Source: a virus (lineage: Duplodnaviria; Caudoviricetes). From it: a stretch of 64,000 nucleotides of DNA. Positions 22,602 through 33,400 of this stretch are shown here, in pieces. How positions within the stretch are numbered: the stretch's first letter is position 1; every line of letters starts with the position of its first letter. The DNA lies in the IMG/VR virus record IMGVR_UViG_3300017560_000009, positions 1 through 64,000 of that record. One strand, written 5' to 3'. The notes under the pieces are model-generated. The model was not told where the DNA came from. It worked only from the letters and a program-made list of their open reading frames with translations, and made no database searches. The position numbers and the translations under genes were made by a program.

Positions 22602-25600
22602 ATGCAGATCGCACCTTTCCGTGGGGCGGGAGGCGGTGGCGGCGGTGGGGGATCTTATGATCGCACCAACGACAACCTGTTTTCCCGAGATACCGTCGAG
22701 CTGGTCCTTGGACTGAGCGTCGGCCCGATCCGTGGTTTGACGGGAGGGATGAAGACCTTCTATGTCGGCGGAACGCCTCTCATGGCCGAAGCCGGAACCA
22801 TGAACTTTGAATCTTTCAACCTGGGCCTGAAGCTCGGGTATGAAAGTGACACGCCCGTGAGCTACAAGCTCGGCGGCGAAGCCTCCAACAAGCAGGTCGG
22901 TACGAAGCTGGCCCAGAACTCGTGGATCACTCGCCAGACCGAAGCTTCGCTGCGCGGTGTGATCGACCAGATCCAAGTTCGTCTCACGATCTCGCAGCTG
23001 TACTATCAAGACGAAGACGGCATCTACAACAACACCGCTCAGTTTTATATCCAATACAAGCCGGCCTCATCGGGCTGGTGGCAGAACTACGGCGGTGGTC
23101 TGACCCAGCTTCATGGCAAGACCATGAGCGGGTACTACGTGGACTACGTGTTCGACGTGCCGCGCATTGACGACGACTGGCTGGTTCGAGTCATGAAGGT
23201 TAACCCGGACAACAACAATGACGTTGTGGCCGATCTCGCCTGGGAAAGCTATCAAGTCATCACGAAGCAGAACCGCCGCTACAACAAACTGGCGCTGGTC
23301 CATATCGTCGCGCTGGCGACTAGCCAGTTCGGGTCGATCCCTGACTTCTCCGGCATCTATGATGGCCGCTTGATTTCGATCCCAACCAATTACAACCCTG
23401 ACCTGCACATCTACGATGAGCTGGTTCCGTGGAACGGTACGTTCAAGACTGGCTGGACGAACAATCCGGCCTGGATCCTTTGGGATCTGATCATGAACAC
23501 CGACTACGGCCTGCGGAAATACTATCCTCACATCACGGCCAACCGCTACGACTTCTACGAGGCGGCGAAGTGGTGTGACGCACCCGTGCCTAATGGCAAG
23601 GGCGGGTATCAACCTCGCTATACGTGCAACATCGCACTGACCGAAGCGAGGAACGGTCTGGAGATGCTGCAATGGATCGCCGGCAGCTTCGGTGCCGTGA
23701 TCTTCGATGACGCAACTGGTCAGATCTACCTGCGTGTGGACAAATGGGAAGAGCCGAAGATGCTCTTCACACCGGAGAACGTCGAGAACGGGGAGTTCAA
23801 CTACAGCTTCACCGACCTCACCACGCGCTACAACGACTACAAGGTCCAGTTCACGAACCCTGATCTGGACTGGAATACCGACCAGCGCCGCGTGAAGAGC
23901 GATGCTCACATCACGGCCTATGGCAACATCGACACCGAGATGGTCATGGTCGGTTGCACGGACGAGCACGAAGCGCTGCGCCGTGGCTACTATCGCCTGA
24001 TCACGTCCACAACCGAGACTGCTTCCGTCTCGTTCACCACAGCGCGCCTGGGAAAGATCGTTGATCCTTACACCATCGTTGCCATTGCCGACCCCACCCC
24101 TGGCTGGTCGATGCCTGGGCGCATCAAGCGCTACCACAACAGCTACATCGAGCTGCGCGACCCGATCTACTTCCTGGCTCAACAGAACTACACGCTGACG
24201 CTCCAGACCGTGGATGGACTGGTGAAGGTCGTGGTGGATCCCGAGCAAGTCGGTACGGTGTACAAGCTGCGCGTGGTCTCCGGCTACGTGCCTGATGGCC
24301 TGCCGGATCGCACGGTCTACACCATCGAAGACAACGGCAACTTCGGCATCGCCAAGCCGTTCCGTATCGTTGACTGGGAGTCCGTGGATGGAAGCCCGGA
24401 CAAGTTCCGCTTCACCGCCGTCGAGGTCAACCGCAACAAGCAGGTCGGCGCGGACAACTGCACTCCTGTAGGCAGCGTCCAGTATTCGTTCAAGAACCCG
24501 CTGATCCCACCGCCTCCGACGAACATCAAGGCCGAGTCTGGCACCGAGTATCTGATGATCTCGCAAGACGGCTCCTTGATGGCTCGCATCTTTGCATCTT
24601 GGGAAGCCCCGCCTAACGTGCTCATCGAGCGCTACGACATCCACTGGAAGGAAAGCCGGCTCTCCACCTGGAACTCAGCCACCAGCCCTGCGGAAAGCGT
24701 GTTGCTTGGTCCGTGCGAGAGCGGTGTGGCCTACGACATCGTGGTCTGGGCCGTGAACTCGTTCGGCAACCGTTCCGCCGCGCTGACGCTGTTCAACTAC
24801 GTGGTGGTGGGCAAGAGCGATCCTCCGTCGAACGTGAAGAACTTCACGATCCGTCGCCGCGCCAATGACATCCTGCTGCGCTGGGATGCGATCCCTGACC
24901 TGGACCGCAAGGGCTACGAGATCCGGCAAGGCACGAACTGGGAAACTGCGACCGTGCTGGTCACGGACTACGCCGCTACACAGTTTGCGTGGACCACGAC
25001 CGAAGGAGGCAGCTACACCTTCTTGATCCGCGCCATCGACACGTCGGGCAACTTCTCGCTGCTGCCCACGGCCCAGACGATCTATATCCAAGGCCCGAGC
25101 GCGGTCACAGGCGTGATCGCCATCCAGTCGAACAACCGGATCGAACTGCGCTGGACGCCGAACCCGGAAGACAACATCCTGGAGTACGAGATCCGCGAGG
25201 GCTTCTCGTGGGGTACAGGCGTGTTCTTGGCCAAGGTGAAGTCCACCAGCTACAGCATGACGGCAGGTTCGTCTGGCACGCGCATGTTCTGGCTGAAGGC
25301 CATCGCCTCGCCTGGGGTGTATTCGGAACGCGCCACGTTCGTCACCACGGACATCGCGCAGCTGGACAACGCCAACATCATCTACACCACGGATGAGGTG
25401 GTCAACGGCTTCACTGGCACGCGATACAACATGGTCGTGACCGGCGATACGCTGCGCATGGACGATGGCCGCGCCCACGCCGAGTACATCTTCCCGGTCG
25501 TGCTACCTACGGTCTTCCGCGCCCAGAACACGCTGTTCGTTGGCCTGGACGCCATCGTGGACCAGAGCACGCGCTGGGTCGATGCGACGTACCCCTGGAC

Positions 25601-26204
25601 CGACGCCCGCGCCCAGACACCGTGGACAATCCCTGGCGACATCTCGTCCATTGGCTACAAGGCCGAGATCGCTGTGCGCAAGGGCTTCCCGGACAACATC
25701 CGGCATTCGATCACCTTCAACGGCACGCTGGTATCGGAAGGCCCAGCCGGCTACAACCCAGCTCCCGTCGTCTCGATGGACAACATCACGTATGCCACCG
25801 GCAAGTTCGGCCAAGGCTTGTACGTGCGAGGTGGAGACGGTGATAACCCGCTGCTGAAGACGATGCTGCTGCTGTCAACGCCGCTGCCTTCGGTATTCAC
25901 CTACGGCGGTTGGTTCCGCATCATGTCGGATGAGAACCAGGCCTTGACTACGCTGCACACTGACTCGTCTGGCCACTCGCTGTATTACAGCAAGACCCTA
26001 GAATCCCTCATATGGGGAGGCGCGGACGGCAACAGCTTGTACATCCCGTTCAAGCCGGAACTGGGTGAACGTTATCTGATGATGATGGTTCAAGATACCG
26101 CCAATCGTCGCCTGTATTTGGGCCGAGAAGATAAGACCTTTGTTCGCATTGAAATGTCAGCGGCTCCGTTTGAAACTGTGCAGTATCTGAGGTACACGAC
26201 ATGA
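22602..26204 (+). CDS. Tail tip/host-specificity protein J-like with FN3 repeats and a C-terminal LamG-like domain
   Basis: WTNNPAWILWDL, RYTCN, FN3-like PSNVKNF/YEIR repeats and GKFGQGLY. Confidence 0.85.
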   Translation: MQIAPFRGAGGGGGGGGSYDRTNDNLFSRDTVELVLGLSVGPIRGLTGGMKTFYVGGTPLMAEAGTMNFESFNLGLKLGYESDTPVSYKLGGEASNKQVGTKLAQNSWITRQTEASLRGVIDQIQVRLTISQLYYQDEDGIYNNTAQFYIQYKPASSGWWQNYGGGLTQLHGKTMSGYYVDYVFDVPRIDDDWLVRVMKVNPDNNNDVVADLAWESYQVITKQNRRYNKLALVHIVALATSQFGSIPDFSGIYDGRLISIPTNYNPDLHIYDELVPWNGTFKTGWTNNPAWILWDLIMNTDYGLRKYYPHITANRYDFYEAAKWCDAPVPNGKGGYQPRYTCNIALTEARNGLEMLQWIAGSFGAVIFDDATGQIYLRVDKWEEPKMLFTPENVENGEFNYSFTDLTTRYNDYKVQFTNPDLDWNTDQRRVKSDAHITAYGNIDTEMVMVGCTDEHEALRRGYYRLITSTTETASVSFTTARLGKIVDPYTIVAIADPTPGWSMPGRIKRYHNSYIELRDPIYFLAQQNYTLTLQTVDGLVKVVVDPEQVGTVYKLRVVSGYVPDGLPDRTVYTIEDNGNFGIAKPFRIVDWESVDGSPDKFRFTAVEVNRNKQVGADNCTPVGSVQYSFKNPLIPPPPTNIKAESGTEYLMISQDGSLMARIFASWEAPPNVLIERYDIHWKESRLSTWNSATSPAESVLLGPCESGVAYDIVVWAVNSFGNRSAALTLFNYVVVGKSDPPSNVKNFTIRRRANDILLRWDAIPDLDRKGYEIRQGTNWETATVLVTDYAATQFAWTTTEGGSYTFLIRAIDTSGNFSLLPTAQTIYIQGPSAVTGVIAIQSNNRIELRWTPNPEDNILEYEIREGFSWGTGVFLAKVKSTSYSMTAGSSGTRMFWLKAIASPGVYSERATFVTTDIAQLDNANIIYTTDEVVNGFTGTRYNMVVTGDTLRMDDGRAHAEYIFPVVLPTVFRAQNTLFVGLDAIVDQSTRWVDATYPWTDARAQTPWTIPGDISSIGYKAEIAVRKGFPDNIRHSITFNGTLVSEGPAGYNPAPVVSMDNITYATGKFGQGLYVRGGDGDNPLLKTMLLLSTPLPSVFTYGGWFRIMSDENQALTTLHTDSSGHSLYYSKTLESLIWGGADGNSLYIPFKPELGERYLMMMVQDTANRRLYLGREDKTFVRIEMSAAPFETVQYLRYTT

Positions 26205-26674
26205 GCATCATCGTTTCCGACGTTTTCACGAGTCCTCAAGCCCTTACGTTTGACGACTTCCTGGAGATGTTGAATAACCAATCGCCTGTCGGGTTCAGCC
26301 CCTTCCAGCAGTTCGTGGCGGGAGACTATGAATACGACAAGGCGCTTTACCGGATCTCGATGAGTTCAACTTCCGGGGACCGAGGCATCATCACGAAGCT
26401 TCAAGTGGACGTGGACGTTCCTGACATGCTGGACCGTGGCCGAGTCACCATCACGCCGGCTGAAGCTGCGGCCGGATTGAAGTGGGTTCCGTTCACTCGT
26501 CCCTTCCACGTCCCACCTGTGCCGCTGGCTACCGTGATGAGCGCGTCTTACCCGTGCGTGGCCCGCATCCCCCAGGCCAACGTGACACGATCAGGCTTCA
26601 TGGTCTCGCTTCAGAAAACGGACGGATCCGGAGGCACGGACGGCGTGCTTACCTGGGCCGCGCACTCGTATTAA
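26201..26674 (+). CDS. Tail-tip accessory protein
   Basis: ATGA overlap with J; the C-terminal VPFTRPFHVPP...VTRSGFMVSL...LTWAAHSY is typical of fibre beta-sandwich tails. Confidence 0.55.
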   Translation: MSIIVSDVFTSPQALTFDDFLEMLNNQSPVGFSPFQQFVAGDYEYDKALYRISMSSTSGDRGIITKLQVDVDVPDMLDRGRVTITPAEAAAGLKWVPFTRPFHVPPVPLATVMSASYPCVARIPQANVTRSGFMVSLQKTDGSGGTDGVLTWAAHSY

Positions 26675-26735: not shown

Positions 26736-28178
26736 ATGCAAGGCTATACCCAAATACCGGAGTCACAGCGCGTATCGGACTCGTTGCCGATGCTGCTGAA
26801 CAACGACCTGACGGCGATCTCGCGCAACAGCGGTACGGCGTTCCCCACGGCCGGTCTCCAAGTGGGCATGTCCTTCCTGCATCTGACCGAGCGCAAGCTG
26901 TACCGTTTGGACAGCGTGTCGCCCATTACCTGGGCGCTGGAACTCGACCTGACGCGCCAGCTCGTCTACAACGACACCGTGGCGTTGCTCCAGATCGACA
27001 TCGCCTCGAAGATCCCGCTGGCTGGAGGGGTCATGACCGGGTTGCTCACGCTGTCCGGCAACCCCGTCAACCTGATGCACGCGGCCAACAAGCAGTACGT
27101 GGACACCGCGATGGCCACGGCTTCCGCGTCCGCCAATACGCGGGTGCTGCGCACGGGCGACACCATGACCGGCCCGCTGACGCTTCCCGGTGATCCATCC
27201 TTGGATCTTCATGCCGCGACGAAGCGCTACGCTGACTACCTGTACAACTTGTCAAACCAGAACAAGCTGGGCAAGGTCGGCGATACGGTGAACGAGATCT
27301 ACAACACCGGATGGTTCCGTTCGGTCGGCGCTGTGGGCTGGTACAACCAGACTTATGGAGGCGGCATCACGATGTCGGATGCCTCCTGGGTCCGTGTCTA
27401 TGGCAGCAAGGGCTTCTTGACCGACTGGCACCAGTTGATTGCTGGCGGTCAGATCTACACCTCGCGCTACGGCTACCTCGAAAACGCCTTCGCCGCCAAG
27501 GGCGCTGAAGATCGCGTCTACGCAGCCGGCACCTACGACGAAGGCGCAGGCGTCTGGTATCGACCCGGCAGCTACTATCTCGTCCGCTCCGGCGCGTACA
27601 TCTATCTCGTGCGGCCCAAGGCCAACTGCAACTGCGACTGCAACTGCTCCTGCTTCCCGGCCGGCACGATGGTGCTGATGGCCGATGGCACGCAGAAGCC
27701 TATCGAACAGGTGCAGGTCGGCGATATGGTCATGGCCTGGGACGGCTCGGCCGACGAAGTGGTCGAGATGGAAACCCCGATCCTGGGGGATCGTCGCCTG
27801 ATGCGCTTGACCGATGGCTCGCTATCCTGGTCCGAAGAGCATCTGCTGTGGACCCGCCAGGAAGGCAAGGAATGGTGGGGATGCGCCAACCGCAACCAGT
27901 GGTACTCCGAAGTGCTGGTGGACCACATCAAGGGTCTGCCTGACAACGCCTCGCTGCGTGACATCGGCGATCAAGTCGAGCTGGCTCACGTCTCTGGCTG
28001 GGTCAACCGTGAAGTCACGGGCCAGCAGGAAGATCCCAACACCCAGCTCTACCTGCCGCGCACGAAGCGCACGCACATGATCATCGTCAACGGCTATCTG
28101 GCCGGCGCGGGCGTCGATGGTTTCTCGATGGACTACAACGAAGTGAACTGGACGGGGATTCCCAATGTTGCTGCATAA
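26736..28178 (+). CDS. Tail fibre protein ending in a CxCxCxC motif plus a Hint domain
   Basis: Two GxxMTGxLTL...AA(N/T)KxY(V/A)D fibre repeats and a GWFRS..GWYNQTYGGG segment; NCNCDCNCS at 27624-27650; Hint start CFPAGTMVLMADG at 27651, SEEH block B and HMIIVNGYL block. Confidence 0.85.
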   Translation: MQGYTQIPESQRVSDSLPMLLNNDLTAISRNSGTAFPTAGLQVGMSFLHLTERKLYRLDSVSPITWALELDLTRQLVYNDTVALLQIDIASKIPLAGGVMTGLLTLSGNPVNLMHAANKQYVDTAMATASASANTRVLRTGDTMTGPLTLPGDPSLDLHAATKRYADYLYNLSNQNKLGKVGDTVNEIYNTGWFRSVGAVGWYNQTYGGGITMSDASWVRVYGSKGFLTDWHQLIAGGQIYTSRYGYLENAFAAKGAEDRVYAAGTYDEGAGVWYRPGSYYLVRSGAYIYLVRPKANCNCDCNCSCFPAGTMVLMADGTQKPIEQVQVGDMVMAWDGSADEVVEMETPILGDRRLMRLTDGSLSWSEEHLLWTRQEGKEWWGCANRNQWYSEVLVDHIKGLPDNASLRDIGDQVELAHVSGWVNREVTGQQEDPNTQLYLPRTKRTHMIIVNGYLAGAGVDGFSMDYNEVNWTGIPNVAA

Positions 28179-28887
28179 ATCTTTCGTGGATCCCGCCCTC
28201 GTGTTCCAGGAGAACGAGGAAGAAGCCAAGAAGTGGTCCTTGACGATTCGTGTCCAGGCCACTCCGACTGGCTTCATCATGTCATCATCGGAATACTCGC
28301 TCTACTGGCAATTTGACTACACGAAGCTGGCGCACGGTGATGACATGATGTACATCGTGCAAGACCGTGGCCAGCAAGTGAAGTACATCTGGAAGTCCGA
28401 GTTCGCCAACTCCAAGGACGGGCTGGCTGCTGCGCTCCAGCGCAACAACATCGACTCCTTCTCACCGCTGGCCGTGATCGCTATCGGCCGCAGTACCAGC
28501 GACTGGGCGGCGCTCTTCATGACGAACACGACCCAGACCCTGGGCGAGTTCGTGAAGCTGGACTCCAAGTACGAGCGCATGCGCAGCGACCATATCTTGA
28601 TGGACATGGCCCCGTCGATGGCTCCCATGATCCAGGCCTATGACGACAAGATGGCGCTGCTGCGCAAGATCCGCACCAACGATTCCATCGCGGCGCTGGA
28701 GTCCCAGGTGGATCTGCTGACGACCTGGGTGGCCGCGCTGATCCCGGAGGAATTCCGAGACCAGTTGCTGGAGGTCATAGCTTCAAGGAATAAAGATACC
28801 AAAGTGGTTTTTGATGATATGCTTGCGTTCAAACAGCGCCTGCGTACTGCGGTGGGCGATTACCAACGCACCAAGAACCCGTCATGA
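28165..28887 (+). CDS. Hypothetical protein coupled to the fibre and radical SAM genes
   Basis: Overlaps the fibre stop and the rSAM start (ATGA); helical C-terminus DSIAALESQVDLLT. Confidence 0.75.
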   Translation: MLLHKSFVDPALVFQENEEEAKKWSLTIRVQATPTGFIMSSSEYSLYWQFDYTKLAHGDDMMYIVQDRGQQVKYIWKSEFANSKDGLAAALQRNNIDSFSPLAVIAIGRSTSDWAALFMTNTTQTLGEFVKLDSKYERMRSDHILMDMAPSMAPMIQAYDDKMALLRKIRTNDSIAALESQVDLLTTWVAALIPEEFRDQLLEVIASRNKDTKVVFDDMLAFKQRLRTAVGDYQRTKNPS

Positions 28888-30242
28888 CCACCTTTGTTCT
28901 CAAGACGGTCGATGCCAACGGCGTCGGCCGTGATTTTTTGTACAACAACATGGCGAGCGTGCTGCGCGATTACGCGACCAGCAACAAGCTCCTGCCGGGT
29001 GTGACGCAAGAGAAGGTCACGCCCACTAAGCCCGTCATGCTGACCTGGGGTAAGAGCCGCGAGGTCCGCGTGCTGAAGATCCAGCTGGGCTTGTCCTGCA
29101 ACTACTCCTGCGAATACTGCCTCCAGCGCTTCGTGCCTTTCGAGCAAGACACGAGCGCCCAGGACGTGGAAGCCTTCTTGGCTAGTCTGGAAGCCAACGT
29201 GGTGTTGGCCCCCGATGCCAAGATCCAGTTCTGGGGCGGCGAACCCCTGGTCTACTGGAAGACCATGTTCCCCCTGGCGCGTGCGCTGCGCGCCCGCTAC
29301 CCCGAGGTCGAATTCTCGGTCATCACCAATGGTTCGCTCATGGACCCGGAGAAGGCGCTGTTCCTGTTGGAGCTGGGCTTCACGGTCTCCATCTCGCACG
29401 ATGGCCCTGGCCAAGCTGTGCGTGGTGAAGACCCCTTCGACAACCCGAAGACCAAGCAGGCGATCTTGATGCTCTACAACCGCCTGCGTCCCCTCGACCG
29501 GATCTCGTTCAACGCGATGATCCACAAGAACAACCAGAGCCGCGCAGCGGTGCAGAAGTTCTTCCAGGAGCTGACCGGCGACGAGGACGTGCCGATAGGG
29601 GAGGGCAGCTTCATCGACGCCTACGATGAAGGCGGCATGATGCACACCGCCATGACCGATCAAGAGCACATCGACTACCGCAGACTGGCCTACGATGAGA
29701 TCTCCAACGGCCAAGCGTTGAACTTCGGCACGATCACGCACAAGATCCGCGACTTCTTCGAGACACTGGATACGGGCCGAAGCGCCTACCACGTCTGGCA
29801 GAAGTGCGGCATGGACAAGGACGACCGCATCGCCGTCACGCTCAAGGGCGATGTGCTGACCTGCCAGAACGTCTCGACCACTTCGACCGCAGCCAATGGT
29901 GCGCCCCACCATGCTGGCAACATCGAGAAGATGGAAGAAGTGAAGATCGAGACCAGCACGCACTGGCTCTCGCGGCCCAACTGCCGGTCTTGTCCGGTTT
30001 TGCAGTTGTGCCGTGGCTCGTGCATGTACCTGCAAGGCCCGCTGTGGGAGGCCAGCTGTGCAGCCGCCTACAGCGACAACGTGGTCCTACTGGCGGTGGC
30101 TATCAAGGAGCTGACTGGCCACCAGCTGGTGTCTATCGAACCCCTGGAAGACTCGCTGCCTGAAGTGCGGCGCAACGTCTTCGCAGACCCAACTACCAAG
30201 AACCCGGCTCGGAAAGTCATTCCGATCACCCTGGAGAAGTAA
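28884..30242 (+). CDS. Radical SAM enzyme with a SPASM domain (anSME/peptide-maturase-like)
   Basis: CNYSCEYC (CxxxCxxC) at 29097-29120, FWGGEPL, ITNGSL, ISHDG; SPASM C-x13-G-x4-C ... CxxC-x5-C-x3-C-x11-C at 29805-30059. Confidence 0.93.
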   Translation: MTTFVLKTVDANGVGRDFLYNNMASVLRDYATSNKLLPGVTQEKVTPTKPVMLTWGKSREVRVLKIQLGLSCNYSCEYCLQRFVPFEQDTSAQDVEAFLASLEANVVLAPDAKIQFWGGEPLVYWKTMFPLARALRARYPEVEFSVITNGSLMDPEKALFLLELGFTVSISHDGPGQAVRGEDPFDNPKTKQAILMLYNRLRPLDRISFNAMIHKNNQSRAAVQKFFQELTGDEDVPIGEGSFIDAYDEGGMMHTAMTDQEHIDYRRLAYDEISNGQALNFGTITHKIRDFFETLDTGRSAYHVWQKCGMDKDDRIAVTLKGDVLTCQNVSTTSTAANGAPHHAGNIEKMEEVKIETSTHWLSRPNCRSCPVLQLCRGSCMYLQGPLWEASCAAAYSDNVVLLAVAIKELTGHQLVSIEPLEDSLPEVRRNVFADPTTKNPARKVIPITLEK

Positions 30243-30244
30243 AA

Positions 30245-30658
30245 ATGGAAAACCCTCAAGCAGCCCAACCCGAAGGCCTCTCGCCGGAAGTCGCCAACGT
30301 CTTGATCAAGACGCTTCAGGACCAGCGCAACACCGCCCATGATGAGCTGGCCAAGGCGCTCACGAACGTCACGCTGCTGACCCAGCAGGGCCAGCAGTTC
30401 CTGGAACAGCACACGATGTTGAACAAGGCTTACGACGAGCTGATCAAGAACTTCTCGGCCGTCGAAGAAGAGGCCGTCGCGCTGCGCGCCGCGAATGCCG
30501 CCTTGACCGCCAAGCTGGAGCAAGCCCAGGCTCCGCAACCCGGCGTGGTCAGCACGCTCATGACGGCCGACAATCCCCCGGCCGTGATGCCTCCCAGTCA
30601 CCAAGACCCTCTTGCGCCGACTGGCGGGCCGGTGACGGCGAGGGGGTCGGAAAGTTGA
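30245..30658 (+). CDS. Coiled-coil hypothetical protein
   Basis: Starts 2 nt after the rSAM stop; heptad-rich LQDQRNTAHDELAKAL... Confidence 0.7.
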   Translation: MENPQAAQPEGLSPEVANVLIKTLQDQRNTAHDELAKALTNVTLLTQQGQQFLEQHTMLNKAYDELIKNFSAVEEEAVALRAANAALTAKLEQAQAPQPGVVSTLMTADNPPAVMPPSHQDPLAPTGGPVTARGSES

Positions 30659-30782: not shown

Positions 30783-30805
30783 AAGCGCCCGCAAGGGCGC
30801 TTTTT
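30783..30805 (+). terminator. Rho-independent terminator closing the fibre/rSAM module
   Basis: AAGCGCCC-GCAA-GGGCGCTT-TTT. Confidence 0.8.
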
Positions 30806-30876: not shown

Positions 30877-31407
30877 GTGATCATCACCCCCCAACAACTC
30901 AAGCGGATCATGCCCAACGCATCCATCGCCAACACGGAGATCTATGCTCCCTTGTTGACGAAGCACATGATCAAGTGGCACATCGACACGTTCGAGCAAG
31001 CCACGGCTTTCATTGCCAACGTTGGTCATGAAAGCGGCGAGTTGAAGTACACGGAAGAGATCGCTAGTGGAGCGGCTTACGAAGGCCGCAAGGATCTGGG
31101 GAACACTGAACCCGGTGATGGGAAGCGCTACAAAGGAAGAGGGCTGATTCAACTGACGGGCCGCACGAACTACCTGCTCATGGGCCTGATGCTGGATCAA
31201 GATTTCATCAACAACCCAACCTTGCTCATGCAACCTGAGTTCGCGTCGGAGAGTGCTGCGGCCTTTTGGTGGAACAACTATTTGGACAAGGTGGCAACTT
31301 CAGCGTCCAAGTTCATCACCGTGGTCAAACGCATCAACGGCGGCACCAACGGCATAGACCACCGCGAACAGCTGTACAAGAATGCGCGTAAGGTTCTCGC
31401 GGAGTAA
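30877..31407 (+). CDS. Endolysin, glycoside hydrolase family 19
   Basis: GHESGEL...YEGRKDLGN...GDGKRYKGRGLIQLTGRTNY...RINGGTNG. Confidence 0.92.
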   Translation: MIITPQQLKRIMPNASIANTEIYAPLLTKHMIKWHIDTFEQATAFIANVGHESGELKYTEEIASGAAYEGRKDLGNTEPGDGKRYKGRGLIQLTGRTNYLLMGLMLDQDFINNPTLLMQPEFASESAAAFWWNNYLDKVATSASKFITVVKRINGGTNGIDHREQLYKNARKVLAE

Positions 31408-31410
31408 GCA

Positions 31411-31821
31411 ATGAACCATAACGACTTCATCGGCCGGCTAATGTTCACGTCTTGGGCAGTTGTCGTGGTCATCCTGGCTGTCACTCCGTCTGACTCCATC
31501 CCGGAACTGAGTACGATGTACGGAGGGAAGTTCCTCACGACACTCCTGGCGCTCGCATGCCTGTTCCTGGTGTCTGACCTAGTGATTAACGACTTCATGC
31601 CCGCTCGTTTCGTGTTTCGCAGCGCTACCAAGTGGCGCACCTGGGCTTATATCCTCTCGTCGTTCGTCTTTACCGCCCACCTGTTCGTGGTGATGCGTTC
31701 CATTGGTTTCATCGAAGGTGGAACCATCGCGCTTTACACGACCATGGTGGTCTTTGGCTTGCTGCTCTCGTTTCGCAACATCTTCTGCCTTCGAGGGAAA
31801 AAGCGTGCAACCCATCATTAA
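31411..31821 (+). CDS. Membrane protein in the lysis cassette (holin/antiholin-like)
   Basis: About 4 hydrophobic segments with a basic C-terminus. Confidence 0.6.
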   Translation: MNHNDFIGRLMFTSWAVVVVILAVTPSDSIPELSTMYGGKFLTTLLALACLFLVSDLVINDFMPARFVFRSATKWRTWAYILSSFVFTAHLFVVMRSIGFIEGGTIALYTTMVVFGLLLSFRNIFCLRGKKRATHH

Positions 31822-32215
31822 ATATTTGGCCGCTATGACGGCCATGCTGTGGGGCGTGACCTTCACCGCTGCGGTACGCGCTGAAGGTATCGGATATCGC
31901 ATTGGCGCAGACCTTGCGAGCATCCCGTTTTCTGCATACGTGATCGTCACGATGCTCAGTGGTATCGGAGGTTTCGTTTCGACACTCATCCGGCTTTCCA
32001 ACGAGCCTGATGAGAAGCTGGCACGTTGGAAGCTGCTTGTCCTACGCGATATGGCAGCGTCGTTGCTGGCTGGCGTGGTGGTGTTCTTCTGGAGCGAAGC
32101 TTCGCAGTGGTCTACCGCGAATGCTGCCATCATGATCACGCTGGCTGGGTTTGGCGGCACCAAGGTGCTAGACATCTTGGTCGATAAGTTCATCGCCAAA
32201 AGGGAGCCGCAATGA
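31805..32215 (+). CDS. Putative holin
   Basis: GTG start; 3-4 TM segments, LAGFGGTKVLDIL, charged C-terminus. Confidence 0.65.
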   Translation: MQPIIKYLAAMTAMLWGVTFTAAVRAEGIGYRIGADLASIPFSAYVIVTMLSGIGGFVSTLIRLSNEPDEKLARWKLLVLRDMAASLLAGVVVFFWSEASQWSTANAAIMITLAGFGGTKVLDILVDKFIAKREPQ

Positions 32216-32778
32216 AGATGATCTCGCTACAGACCACCATCATTGCGGCCGCAATAGCACTCGCTACCGGGGGCATTGCTGGGTCTCTGACGGCCTGGAG
32301 TCTTACCAAGAACCACTACGTCGCAAAGATCGAGAAACAACAACGTGAAGCGAGTGAGCAAGCCCGCGTTGCCGAACAACAGTTCAACACCAAGGTTGCC
32401 AACCTCAATTCTGATAGCGCCAAGAGGTTGGATCAAGTTTCAACAGCTTTTCAAGAGAAACTGAATGCTGCGGAGAAGAAATATGAGGATGTTGCTGCCC
32501 TTATTGCTGATGGCACTTACAGCTTGCGCGACCCCGGCACCAGTAGCTCCTGTGAAGTACCCAAGGATCGAAGTGTCGCCGCCGCCAGCAGCGGTAATGG
32601 TCAAGCGGGAGGCCAACTTTCGGCAAAGGCTACTCGATTTCTTTGGGGGGAAGCCGAACGTGCCGACCTCATCACCGAGCAACTAGCCGCGACCCAAGAG
32701 GTAGCCGCTGCCTACTGGCAACTGATCAACAAGTACGGGTTGGAGATTGAAGCTTTGACCCTCACCATGCAAAGGTAG
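32212..32778 (+). CDS. Inner-membrane spanin (Rz-like)
   Basis: N-terminal TM segment followed by a coiled coil. Confidence 0.8.
   Translation: MKMISLQTTIIAAAIALATGGIAGSLTAWSLTKNHYVAKIEKQQREASEQARVAEQQFNTKVANLNSDSAKRLDQVSTAFQEKLNAAEKKYEDVAALIADGTYSLRDPGTSSSCEVPKDRSVAAASSGNGQAGGQLSAKATRFLWGEAERADLITEQLAATQEVAAAYWQLINKYGLEIEALTLTMQR
32483..32686 (+). CDS. Outer-membrane spanin (Rz1-like), fully embedded in Rz in another frame
   Basis: MRMLLPLLLMALTA-C lipobox followed by a Pro-rich chain. Confidence 0.85.
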   Translation: MRMLLPLLLMALTACATPAPVAPVKYPRIEVSPPPAAVMVKREANFRQRLLDFFGGKPNVPTSSPSN

Positions 32779-32782
32779 TCGC

Positions 32783-33400
32783 ATGACCCAACAACTAATG
32801 CCGACCAACGTGGCGGGCCAGCAAGTCATCTTGGTCGTGTCCCCTGTTGTGGCCAACGGAGATTCCATCGTGCCTCTCAGAATGCTTTACGGGAGCGGCG
32901 CTCCTGGCAACAACGTCGGTGACGACAAAGAGTTCTATCTGAACATCGACAACTACCGCCTGTATGGTCCGAAGATCGGTGGGCTGTGGGGCGATGGCTA
33001 TCTGCTGAAGGGCGACAAGGGCGATGCCGGCCAGAACGGCAAGATCAACATGGAGACCATCGCCACGCTGGTCGGTGGCACGGGGTCTCCCTTCACCTTC
33101 AACCTGGATCTGTCGCAAGAAGCGTCGATGTTCACTCTGGTGCTCCAGGCTGATGAAAACGCCATCATGCTGCAAAACACGAGCGCGCCCGAAGGCATGG
33201 CTCGTACCTTCACGATGATCCTGCAACAAGGCACCGGAAGCAGCCGCGTGACGACCTGGGATCCGCGCATCCGCTGGCCGGATAACGTGAAGCCCACGCT
33301 GTCGTTCCAAAGCGGCATGCGTGACATCTTCCACTTCGTGTCGCTGGACCGTGGTGACTCGTTCATCCCGTTCTACCTCGGCGGCAACTTCCCGGTGTAA
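32783..33400 (+). CDS. Virion/tail accessory protein
   Basis: Short collagen-like KGDKGDAG; C-terminal beta domain TMILQQGTGSSRVTTW...PTLS...DIFHF typical of fibre ends. Confidence 0.6.
   Translation: MTQQLMPTNVAGQQVILVVSPVVANGDSIVPLRMLYGSGAPGNNVGDDKEFYLNIDNYRLYGPKIGGLWGDGYLLKGDKGDAGQNGKINMETIATLVGGTGSPFTFNLDLSQEASMFTLVLQADENAIMLQNTSAPEGMARTFTMILQQGTGSSRVTTWDPRIRWPDNVKPTLSFQSGMRDIFHFVSLDRGDSFIPFYLGGNFPV

Follow-up and report, generated by a model that had tools for sequence, protein, structure and literature searches.

A probable fibre-tip modification unit in the tail module of a JWF-like Achromobacter siphophage

The locus

The window, the whole 64,000-nucleotide stretch of viral DNA that was analysed, comes from a JWF-like Achromobacter siphophage. 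Its tail module contains a side tail fibre gene whose product runs into a Hint autoprocessing domain, followed by a gene of unknown family and a gene for a radical SAM/SPASM enzyme. The features of the unit and its borders, all on the + strand, are as follows.

26201..26674, +, 157-aa gene directly 5' of the fibre gene, without a Pfam match
26736-28178, +, 480-aa side tail fibre (ORF)
26736..27650, +, mature side tail fibre, residues 1-305 (predicted)
27624..27650, +, (Asn-Cys)n ladder NCNCDCNCS, proposed substrate of the radical SAM enzyme and proposed mature C-terminus
27651..28178, +, Hint autoprocessing domain, residues 306-480 (Pfam, AF2 model)
28165..28887, +, 240-aa accessory protein (F2) of unknown family (ORF)
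28884..30242, +, radical SAM/SPASM enzyme, 452 aa (PF04055, TIGR04085, phrog_1802)
29097..29120, +, CxxxCxxC radical SAM cluster motif (C72, C76, C79), invariant in alignments
29805..30059, +, seven-Cys SPASM signature (C308, C327, C367, C370, C376, C380, C392), from 22 homologues
30245..30658, +, 137-aa coiled-coil protein, last gene of the unit, in JWF-like phages only
30785..30805, +, intrinsic terminator, read by eye from the sequence

The fibre, F2 and radical SAM genes are linked through overlapping stop and start codons, an arrangement that points to co-expression: the F2 ORF and the end of the fibre ORF share 14 nt, and F2 ends in an ATGA that contains the radical SAM start. The unit ends at a hairpin, GCGCCC-GCAA-GGGCGC followed by TTTTT (6-bp GC stem, GCAA loop, T5). 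A consensus terminator scan missed this hairpin at 30785; the JWF genome has an annotated terminator at the equivalent position. A sequence-only reading of this DNA had described the Cys-rich fibre end joined to Cys1 of the Hint domain, the overlapping genes, the Cys signatures of the enzyme and the terminator, and this anatomy is borne out throughout.

Of the two flanking genes, the 157-aa gene has a homologue directly 5' of a ladder-tailed fibre in about 100 loci (tblastn), and its product is probably a fibre attachment or adaptor protein. Homologues of the coiled-coil protein were found by tblastn in JWF-type loci only.

The fibre and its Asn-Cys ladder

The side fibre has PHROG tail-fibre matches and a Shufflon_N-like fibre motif at residues 189-250, and its N-terminal ~170 aa are homologous to those of most other ladder-tailed fibres. 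Residues N297-S305 form the ladder, and the next residue, Cys306 (27651), opens the Hint domain. A CxCxC ladder is found once only in the credible ORFs of the whole window. Judged by this single occurrence and by the presence of the radical SAM enzyme beside such ladders over hundreds of loci (see below), the ladder is not a product of chance.

The consensus from 72 distinct homologues is N-C-N-C-N-C-[N/D/A]-C. Conservation of Asn is as strong as that of Cys, and Asn occupies position -1 in 70 of the 72 tails; at ladder position 6, Ala replaces Asn/Asp in 17. Nearly all of 44 distinct tails have the ladder 0-5 residues from the stop codon, and it is the natural C-terminus in ~90% of loci. Many tails end in extra CC, CCGC or CCC residues. 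The proteins that carry the ladder are diverse, comprising JWF-type fibres, collagen-repeat fibres, 90-110-aa mini-fibres, small Cys/Asn-rich proteins and an Ackermannviridae fibre. The AF2 model of the fibre shaft (residues 1-303), a trimer modelled as a monomer, has the low confidence expected in such a case (pLDDT below 50) and gives no information on the geometry of the ladder.

The Hint domain and exposure of the ladder

Residues 306-345 match Pfam Hom_end_hint at 45.4 bits (cut-off 32.1). The AF2 model of residues 304-480 is confident and matches BIL2 6tmm (Z 17.6, rmsd 2.3 over 145 residues; Foldseek 1e-7); inteins and Hedgehog 1at0 (Z 13.5) are matched as well. The catalytic positions are in place: Cys1 is C306 and block B reads S-E-E-H369. 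Across 11 divergent homologues neither C306 nor H369 varies, nor do several glycines. The domain thus meets the criteria of the Hint superfamily, namely, the fold, a nucleophilic Cys at position 1 and the block B T/S-x-x-H. It does not meet those of a splicing intein, as its last strand (...NGYLAGAG) lacks His-Asn and only ~20 residues follow the fold. Without the terminal His-Asn, N-terminal cleavage only is expected. Activity is supported by the fold and the invariant Cys1 and T/S-x-x-H, cleavage itself being an inference.

In a minority of loci the ladder is likewise followed by a Hint domain, directly from Cys1, which is the usual case where sequence continues past the ladder: the junction is present in the JWF and B. 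paludis clade and in loci L023/L114, L244 and L264, and L275 has the same junction. In relatives L293, L305 and L308, a Peptidase_S74 domain sits where the window has Hint. The S74 match is a marginal pass (PF13884, 22.4 bits; cut-off 22), and it starts at residue 138, which is the cleavage Ser of ...DCFW/SDDTLK. Other ladders have extensions of ~170-205 aa of unknown fold (the 'SKIIC...' family). In the sequence-only reading, the fibre would end at the ladder once the Hint domain has cleaved. Comparative support for this is strong, as most homologues end at the ladder and self-cleaving domains of either kind directly follow it in some of the others, but the cleavage has not been shown. In the Hint and S74 variants, nature has in effect run an experiment on why the tag needs to lie at the C-terminus.

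The Hint domain might instead stay on the fibre, either as a degenerate structural or adhesion domain or as a folding aid only, in which case the enzyme would act on an internal ladder. The lack of a terminal His-Asn, the ~20 residues after the fold and the occurrence of the 'SKIIC...' extensions after ladders are compatible with retention. Against it stand the invariance of Cys1 and the block B His in divergent homologues, the many relatives that end at the ladder, the unrelated self-cleaving S74 at the same junction in L293, and the changes of Hint state on the radical SAM tree, which number at least 4. We consider retention improbable.

Release of the ladder by the Hint domain would have a parallel in the Peptidase_S74 intramolecular chaperone of endosialidase tailspikes and T5 L-shaped fibres, also a C-terminal phage-fibre domain that is self-cleaved off after assembly. 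The mechanisms differ: S74 uses Ser-Lys, whereas an intein or Hedgehog-type Hint domain uses a Cys nucleophile and a thioester intermediate. We know of no enzyme-made modification of S74 fibres. Hedgehog-type and BIL Hint domains share with the window domain the fold, Cys1, T/S-x-x-H and the expected N-terminal-cleavage-only chemistry. Unlike them, the window domain has no sterol-recognition region, terminal Asn or C-extein, and is fused to a phage fibre right after a Cys ladder.

The radical SAM/SPASM enzyme

The enzyme qualifies as a member of the radical SAM superfamily (PF04055, 43.3 bits; cut-off 29.5) with a SPASM domain (TIGR04085, 35.3 bits; cut-off 27), and matches phrog_1802 at 3e-70. 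All ten Cys of its two signatures are invariant in 22 homologues: C72-x3-C76-x2-C79 in the radical SAM motif, and C308-x13-G-x4-C327, C367-x2-C370-x5-C376-x3-C380 and C392 in the SPASM domain. An eighth Cys upstream is not conserved. Since only seven SPASM Cys are conserved, an open iron site would possibly be allowed. The CteB structure has such an open site, where the substrate Cys binds the cluster. CteB (5wgg) is among the solved structures nearest to the enzyme, together with 8vpo and anSME (4k36-39).

The best full-length NCBIfam matches are PapB (the top one), CcpM, QhpD and anSME, that is, thioether-forming or protein-modifying SPASM maturases. The scores, however, fall far below every curated cut-off: 58.7 bits against 340 for the PapB-type ranthipeptide maturase (NF047865), 49.7 against 453 for QhpD (TIGR03906), 47.7 against 349 for the anaerobic sulfatase maturase (TIGR03942), and 40.5 against 525 for TIGR04463. 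The neighbours are fibre genes, not QhpC/QhpG, and the anSME recognition motif C/S-x-P/A-x-R is absent from all 44 tails. By these profile scores the enzyme belongs to no characterised maturase family, although it may work like PapB. A nucleotide-modifying role, which would have counted against the sequence-only reading, was considered and rejected: resemblance to viperin or MoaA is limited to the core (residues 71-175), and the best full-length scores are all to maturases of peptides and proteins. Searches with Pfam and NCBIfam profiles found no RRE or PqqD match in the enzyme or in F2.

Co-occurrence of enzyme and ladder

The pairing is tight in both directions. Of the homologous radical SAM loci, 122 have 3 kb or more of upstream sequence, and in 116 of these a same-strand ORF with an NCNC... 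ladder lies upstream of the enzyme gene; among control (other) ORFs, 16 of 11,099 have a ladder. Of the six loci without the strict motif, two carry a variant of the tail (NCQCGN in Ralstonia phage RSP15; NCACACEC). Conversely, a scan of the collection with two NCNC-coding DNA patterns matched 90 real ORFs, and the enzyme lies downstream of 84 of them (median 1477 nt) and just upstream of two more (86/90 in total). The earlier reading had suggested such a search, and would have been refuted by homologous enzymes lacking a Cys-rich fibre gene; it survives on both counts. The system is widespread: it is present in >540 IMG/VR contigs and in 189 genome contigs, the majority of which belong to Burkholderiales phages of freshwater and soil.

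Many loci share the same tail module, to which gpJ, the 157-aa gene and the fibre N-terminus belong, and fewer independent events therefore stand behind the pairing than the counts suggest. This sharing, and the variation of accessory genes among loci, leave room for the pairing to be a matter of co-inheritance, the true substrate being a neighbouring accessory protein, a host envelope component or a small molecule. However, the pairing of ladder and enzyme outlasts both complete replacement of the carrier protein (JWF-type to Ackermannviridae fibres) and changes of the accessory genes, and these two are the elements present in nearly every locus, carrier proteins and accessory genes being variable. 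A substrate other than the fibre tail is hence very hard to credit. Because the enzyme accompanies Asn-Cys ladders in hundreds of phages, it is probable that these phages chemically modify their host-binding fibre tips.

Accessory genes

The F2 family is present in 30 loci, always directly 5' of the radical SAM gene. It has no Pfam, NCBIfam or PHROG match, and profile comparison indicates no relation to F1, an unknown 250-340-aa family that follows the fibre in most other loci. In the AF2 model (pLDDT 85), a beta domain at the N-terminus is followed by a helical hairpin at the C-terminus. Foldseek found nothing in the PDB at E <= 0.001, VIA-align gave generic helical-hairpin matches only (Z <= 5.8), and nothing above chance level came from the ESM Atlas. 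Complex prediction for the enzyme and F2 gave a score of 0.00, which says nothing about whether the two bind.

Two further genes of most relatives, one for a 2OG-Fe(II) oxygenase and a second, unknown one, are missing from this phage. As no PF13759 oxygenase was found in the phage's own genome, the oxygenase step of most relatives is absent here, and the full pathway may differ between phages.

Proposed maturation of the fibre tip

The reading that we favour, and regard as moderately likely, is that the locus encodes a fibre-tip maturation unit, in which Hint-mediated release is followed by modification of the ladder by the radical SAM enzyme, most likely through thioether crosslinks. The 480-aa side tail fibre would be a precursor, in which an N-to-S acyl shift at Ser305-Cys306 would allow the Hint domain to release itself, leaving a 305-aa fibre that ends in NCNCDCNCS. 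The co-translated radical SAM/SPASM enzyme would then modify the ladder, the likeliest reaction being abstraction of a hydrogen atom from Asn/Asp and joining of the Cys sulfur to their carbon, as in ranthionine-type thioethers. Links of this kind, within one chain or between the three chains, would give a covalently stapled tip resistant to proteases and redox change. F2 may assist the enzyme or the folding of the fibre, a role that has not been shown. The order of events and the presence of a modified protein in the virion are inferred, and the chemistry rests purely on analogy, since there are no mass spectrometry, structure or expression data for any member.

The analogy is drawn from SPASM enzymes whose substrates have a Cys-rich C-terminal core, in which a Cys sulfur becomes bonded to the beta or gamma carbon of Asn, Asp or Glu: PapB/PapA, CteB/CteA (SCIFF) and NxxcB/NxxcA. 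PapB makes Cys-Asp and NxxcB Cys-Asn crosslinks. Ranthipeptide substrates, however, are short peptides that are secreted, have an N-terminal leader and depend on RRE recognition, whereas here the target would be the end of a 300-aa (up to ~690-aa) virion fibre. Modification at the protein level does have precedents. The archaeal CrpC of Methanococcus voltae forms ranthionine thioethers on CrpA, and, as in the window, a SPASM enzyme is encoded beside a Cys-rich protein rather than a short peptide, with repeated Cys motifs in its C-terminal part (PMC13692751). The CrpC/CrpA system differs in being cellular, in the RRE of CrpC and the leader of CrpA, and in its motifs, which are C-x-x-Q/D repeats of 17 residues instead of a strict N-C ladder at the extreme C-terminus; the function of CrpA is unknown. 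QhpD, which makes Cys-Asp crosslinks (PMC13692751), is comparable in that its Cys-Asp and Cys-Glu thioethers are formed in a structural subunit of a larger assembly (PMC7876137; PMC13692751). That subunit, QhpC, unlike the fibre, is part of an enzyme, quinohaemoprotein amine dehydrogenase, its leader peptide is removed by a separate protease, and neither a Hint domain nor a phage context is involved.

Crosslinking of Cys to Asn/Asp remains the likeliest chemistry by this analogy, and has not been shown. Three observations weigh against it or its RiPP-like recognition: an intrachain link between adjacent N and C residues would close a very small ring; some tails have Ala at position 6; and no RRE-type domain was detected by profile. 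The ladder could alternatively serve mainly to bind a metal or an Fe-S cluster or to form a disulfide knot at the trimer axis, the enzyme carrying out some other reaction on it (Cys to formylglycine, epimerisation, or another modification of Cys or Asn). CxC runs do resemble metal-thiolate motifs, strict alternation suits a two-faced beta strand with Cys on one face and Asn on the other, and virion Fe-S proteins are known, such as lambda gpL; the extra Cys at many tail ends and the place of anSME among the nearest structures and families point the same way. However, formylglycine formation is not favoured by the anSME family score or by the tails, none of which has the recognition motif, and participation of Asn in the reaction would be the simpler explanation for its near-invariance. 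Nor, to our knowledge, do radical SAM/SPASM enzymes act as cluster-loading factors, and the idea raised in the sequence-only reading that the enzyme helps to load a metal or Fe-S cluster thus has no support from enzyme precedent. We regard a mainly metal-binding or disulfide-knotted ladder as unlikely, without dismissing it.

Thioether crosslinking, if it is the reaction, could go further. Using a minimal (Asn-Cys)n tag, a dedicated radical SAM enzyme might weld the three chains of the receptor-binding fibre to one another at the tip by Cys-Asn/Asp thioethers between chains, with the self-cleaving Hint and S74 domains as removable caps that time exposure of the tag. This remains speculative and is open to considerable doubt; if true, a structural protein of the virion would receive a RiPP-type post-translational modification, made on a portable tag of ~8 residues.

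Enzymes that covalently modify the receptor-binding proteins of phages have hardly been explored. A literature search found no paper on a radical SAM plus tail fibre, ranthipeptide or Hint system in phages, and the paper on the JWF relative Lumi is silent on the ladder, Hint and radical SAM system. A crosslinked ladder would be a new way of building stable fibre tips and would bring large virion proteins within the range of radical SAM "RiPP" chemistry, and a recognition tag so short, on such different carriers, would be attractive for protein stapling. The cultivable Achromobacter phages JWF and 2-1, as well as Ralstonia phage RSP15, make the system directly testable.

Gene organization of the fibre-rSAM region

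The region is carried by a siphophage of 80,420 bp (99% complete), and its nucleotide identity over the finding is 85% to Achromobacter phage 2-1 and 75% to JWF. The genes and sites concerned are as follows.

22602-26204: gpJ-like tip protein
26201-26674: 157-aa gene without known family, between gpJ and the fibre
26736-28178: fibre, 480 aa
27624-27650: Asn-Cys run (the ladder), fibre residues 297-305
28165-28887: 240-aa gene (family F2)
28884-30242, plus strand: radical SAM/SPASM enzyme (rSAM), 452 aa
30245-30658: coiled-coil gene, 137 aa
30785-30805: terminator hairpin
32783-33400: second tail-fibre gene, with matches to several PHROG tail-fibre families

All the features from which the sequence-only reading had proposed a fibre maturation system, namely a Cys-rich fibre tip, a Hint domain and a SPASM rSAM, are found in the sequence. 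In about 100 loci a homologue of the 157-aa gene (38-80% identity) directly precedes the gene of a ladder-tailed fibre; the protein is likely an attachment adaptor of the fibre. On the 3' side of the terminator come endolysin, holin and spanin genes and then a second fibre cluster. The lysis cassette, at 30877-33400, has a GH19-type endolysin, membrane proteins and a spanin-like gene; as it lies between the rSAM unit and the second tail-fibre gene, the tail-fibre genes are split by lysis genes, as in JWF.

Co-occurrence of the ladder and the rSAM

All ORFs were listed in 165 loci, and a ladder, defined as a (C-x)n-C run containing C[N/D]C, was sought in same-strand ORFs up to 6 kb upstream of the rSAM. 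Among rSAM loci with at least 3 kb of upstream sequence, 116/122 have an upstream ladder ORF, while only 16 of the 11,099 other ORFs of the same loci meet the criterion. Variant tails account for two of the six exceptions: Ralstonia phage RSP15, a member of the Ackermannviridae (...NTNCQCGN), and locus L094 (NCACACEC). In the reverse test, IMG/VR was scanned for DNA coding NCNCNC[N/D]C or NCNCDCNC, and a hit was counted if a genuine ORF extended for at least 60 aa ahead of it and 3 kb or more of sequence followed (n=90). An rSAM lies downstream on the same strand for 84 of these ladder ORFs, at a median of 1477 nt, and just upstream for two more (86/90). Simple repeats, several of them in giant-virus DNA, make up the remaining hits as well as 46 others that lie in no ORF. 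Homologous rSAMs without Cys-rich fibre genes would have spoken against the maturation proposal; because of the counts in both directions, this objection does not hold. That the rSAM acts on the ladder is, in our judgment, very likely. The enzyme could instead have an unrelated target, the pairing being mere co-inheritance, but this explanation is weakened because ladder and rSAM remain paired while the carriers and the accessory genes change.

A literature search found no paper describing a ladder-rSAM system; the kind of enzyme is known, its biological use here is not. The window contributes these two-way statistics, cultivable Achromobacter phage relatives and a minimal fibre-F2-rSAM set, as well as evidence, from Peptidase_S74 and multiple Hint domains, for the requirement of a C-terminal tag.

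The ladder and its carriers

The consensus from 72 non-identical examples is N-C-N-C-N-C-[N/D/A]-C, and in many of them extra Cys come next (CC, CCGC, CCC, CYC). Asn precedes the first Cys in 70/72 and occupies the next two odd positions in 64/72 and 57/72. Distinct tails number 44, and the tail ends 0-5 residues before the stop codon in about 90% of loci. The carriers vary widely: fibres with a common JWF-type N-terminus, a collagen-repeat fibre with a CBM_5_12, three tandem mini-fibres of 90-110 aa (L006/L007), small Cys/Asn-rich proteins, and the RSP15 side fibre.

In L007 (5467-6379), and likewise in L006, the three small fibre-like genes code for 92-109 aa and have the ladder ends NCNCNCACNC, NCNCNCNC and NCNCACNC; several 2OG-Fe(II) oxygenase-like genes surround the rSAM. 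The genes for the small Cys/Asn-rich proteins of L057 (7479-7934) and L068 (7375-7770) directly precede the rSAM, at a distance of 16-48 nt and without an intervening accessory gene, and in L057 an acidic tail, GDSDDGDDGDD, follows the ladder.

Probable exposure of the ladder by cleavage

The fibre reads ...YLVRPKA-NCNCDCNCS-CFPAGTMVLMADG around the ladder, with Cys306, the first Hint residue, directly after it. In Pfam, the match to Hom_end_hint (45.4 bits) covers no more than the initial 40 residues of the Hint domain. The AF2 model of fibre residues 304-480 is confident and matches Tetrahymena BIL2 (Z 17.6, rmsd 2.3, 145 residues), many inteins and, at Z 13.5, the Hedgehog autoprocessing domain. 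A comparison of 11 homologous fibres with a Hint domain shows no variation at Cys1 (C306) or at the histidine of block B (H369, in S-E-E-H, T-D-D-H or T-R-E-H contexts), and the terminal His-Asn of inteins is absent; hence the Hint domain should cut only the bond preceding Cys1.

A minority of loci have sequence beyond the ladder, and there a self-cleaving domain usually comes first, beginning exactly at its cleavage residue. Hint domains occupy this position in the JWF and B. paludis clade, L023/L114 (NCDCNCNCGTC|CFPLDT), L244 and L264; a Burkholderia prophage (L008) has the same Hint layout as the window. This junction recurs in L275, whose rSAM is more distant. Mapped on a tree of 122 rSAMs, the Hint state requires no fewer than four changes. 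In L293, L305 and L308 a Peptidase_S74 intramolecular chaperone starts at its cleavage Ser (NCNCDCNCDCFW|SDDTLKNRE); the match (PF13884, 22.4 bits) is barely above the cut-off, and the rSAM is 194 nt downstream. Two unrelated self-removing domains at one junction, together with free ladders elsewhere, argue that the ladder has to become the C-terminus. That the Hint domain stays uncleaved was considered; we think it probable that its cleavage exposes the ladder.

A third extension type, of about 170-205 aa, may be an exception to the self-cleaving-domain rule. It starts SKI(I/V)C(A/G/T)KL, is hydrophobic at its end, matches no Pfam family, and is found in L290 (4633-5631), L064, L067, L189 and L334. 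The rSAMs of these loci make up a single clade, and those of L290 and L334 are upstream of the substrate, not downstream.

Providencia phage PSTNGR1 (L004, 4563-5516) encodes, after a T7-like tail fibre, a 317-aa protein terminating in a Hint domain (...WSVS|CFTEDCLVLMADG). Its N-terminus (MALPSSGPITMAQI) resembles that of small Cys/Asn-rich ladder proteins (L244, L290, L293). The protein lacks a Cys ladder, and its neighbourhood contains no rSAM, so Hint-capped virion proteins also exist outside the rSAM system.

The enzyme and its chemistry

The rSAM passes the SPASM domain cut-off and is assigned to PHROG 1802 (3e-70); its CxxxCxxC motif and seven-Cys SPASM signature are both invariant in 22 homologues. 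Relatives of 40-56% identity occur on more than 541 IMG/VR contigs and 189 genome contigs, mainly Burkholderiales prophages or phage contigs binned with Limnohabitans, Polynucleobacter, Polaromonas and Burkholderia, and some in Alphaproteobacteria bins. The top full-length family matches are PapB, CcpM, QhpD, anSME and other SPASM maturases, and the closest solved structures are 8vpo, anSME and CteB. As far as sequence comparison goes, the rSAM is a family separate from these maturases, because all the scores are far below the family cut-offs.

PapB links Cys to Asp, and NxxcB Cys to Asn. For a tag of only Cys and Asn/Asp/Ala, we know of no other rSAM crosslink chemistry. QhpD joins Cys to Asp/Glu by thioethers within a protein subunit, and CrpC was reported in 2026 to place ranthionines on a Cys-rich protein (PMC13692751). 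Thioethers, which the rSAM would form on the ladder, are favoured because of the enzyme class, the tag composition and such precedents; that they specifically are the product we hold to be an evenly balanced proposition. A metal or disulfide knot, with the rSAM carrying out a different reaction, has also been considered. The conservation of Asn suggests that this residue is a reactant.

Accessory genes

In most loci, F1, an unknown family of 250-340 aa, and at least one 2OG-Fe(II) oxygenase (PF13759/PhyH-like, PF13640) lie between substrate and rSAM. F2 takes their place in 30 loci, among them this window and every locus of the JWF and B. paludis types; its gene invariably adjoins the rSAM gene on the 5' side, and in many cases the codons of the two overlap. 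A 2OG oxygenase of the relatives' type is absent from the window phage genome, which makes its gene set minimal. The 240-aa F2 protein found no family match and has no relation to F1; it is modelled (pLDDT 85) as a beta domain plus a helical hairpin, for which a structural search gave no convincing relative. A role as Hint partner is ruled out, since F2 also stands beside free-tailed fibres (L011, L050).

Further unknown proteins of 280-290 aa lie between substrate and rSAM in RSP15 (ORF046; L003, 6072-6938) and L101 (2857-3705). Both have a C-terminal sequence resembling W(L/F)DYD...W...(N/E)(E/F)(Y/F)G(K/R)(I/K)HP(Y/F).M(I/L)R(E/D)G, and they may be another accessory family.
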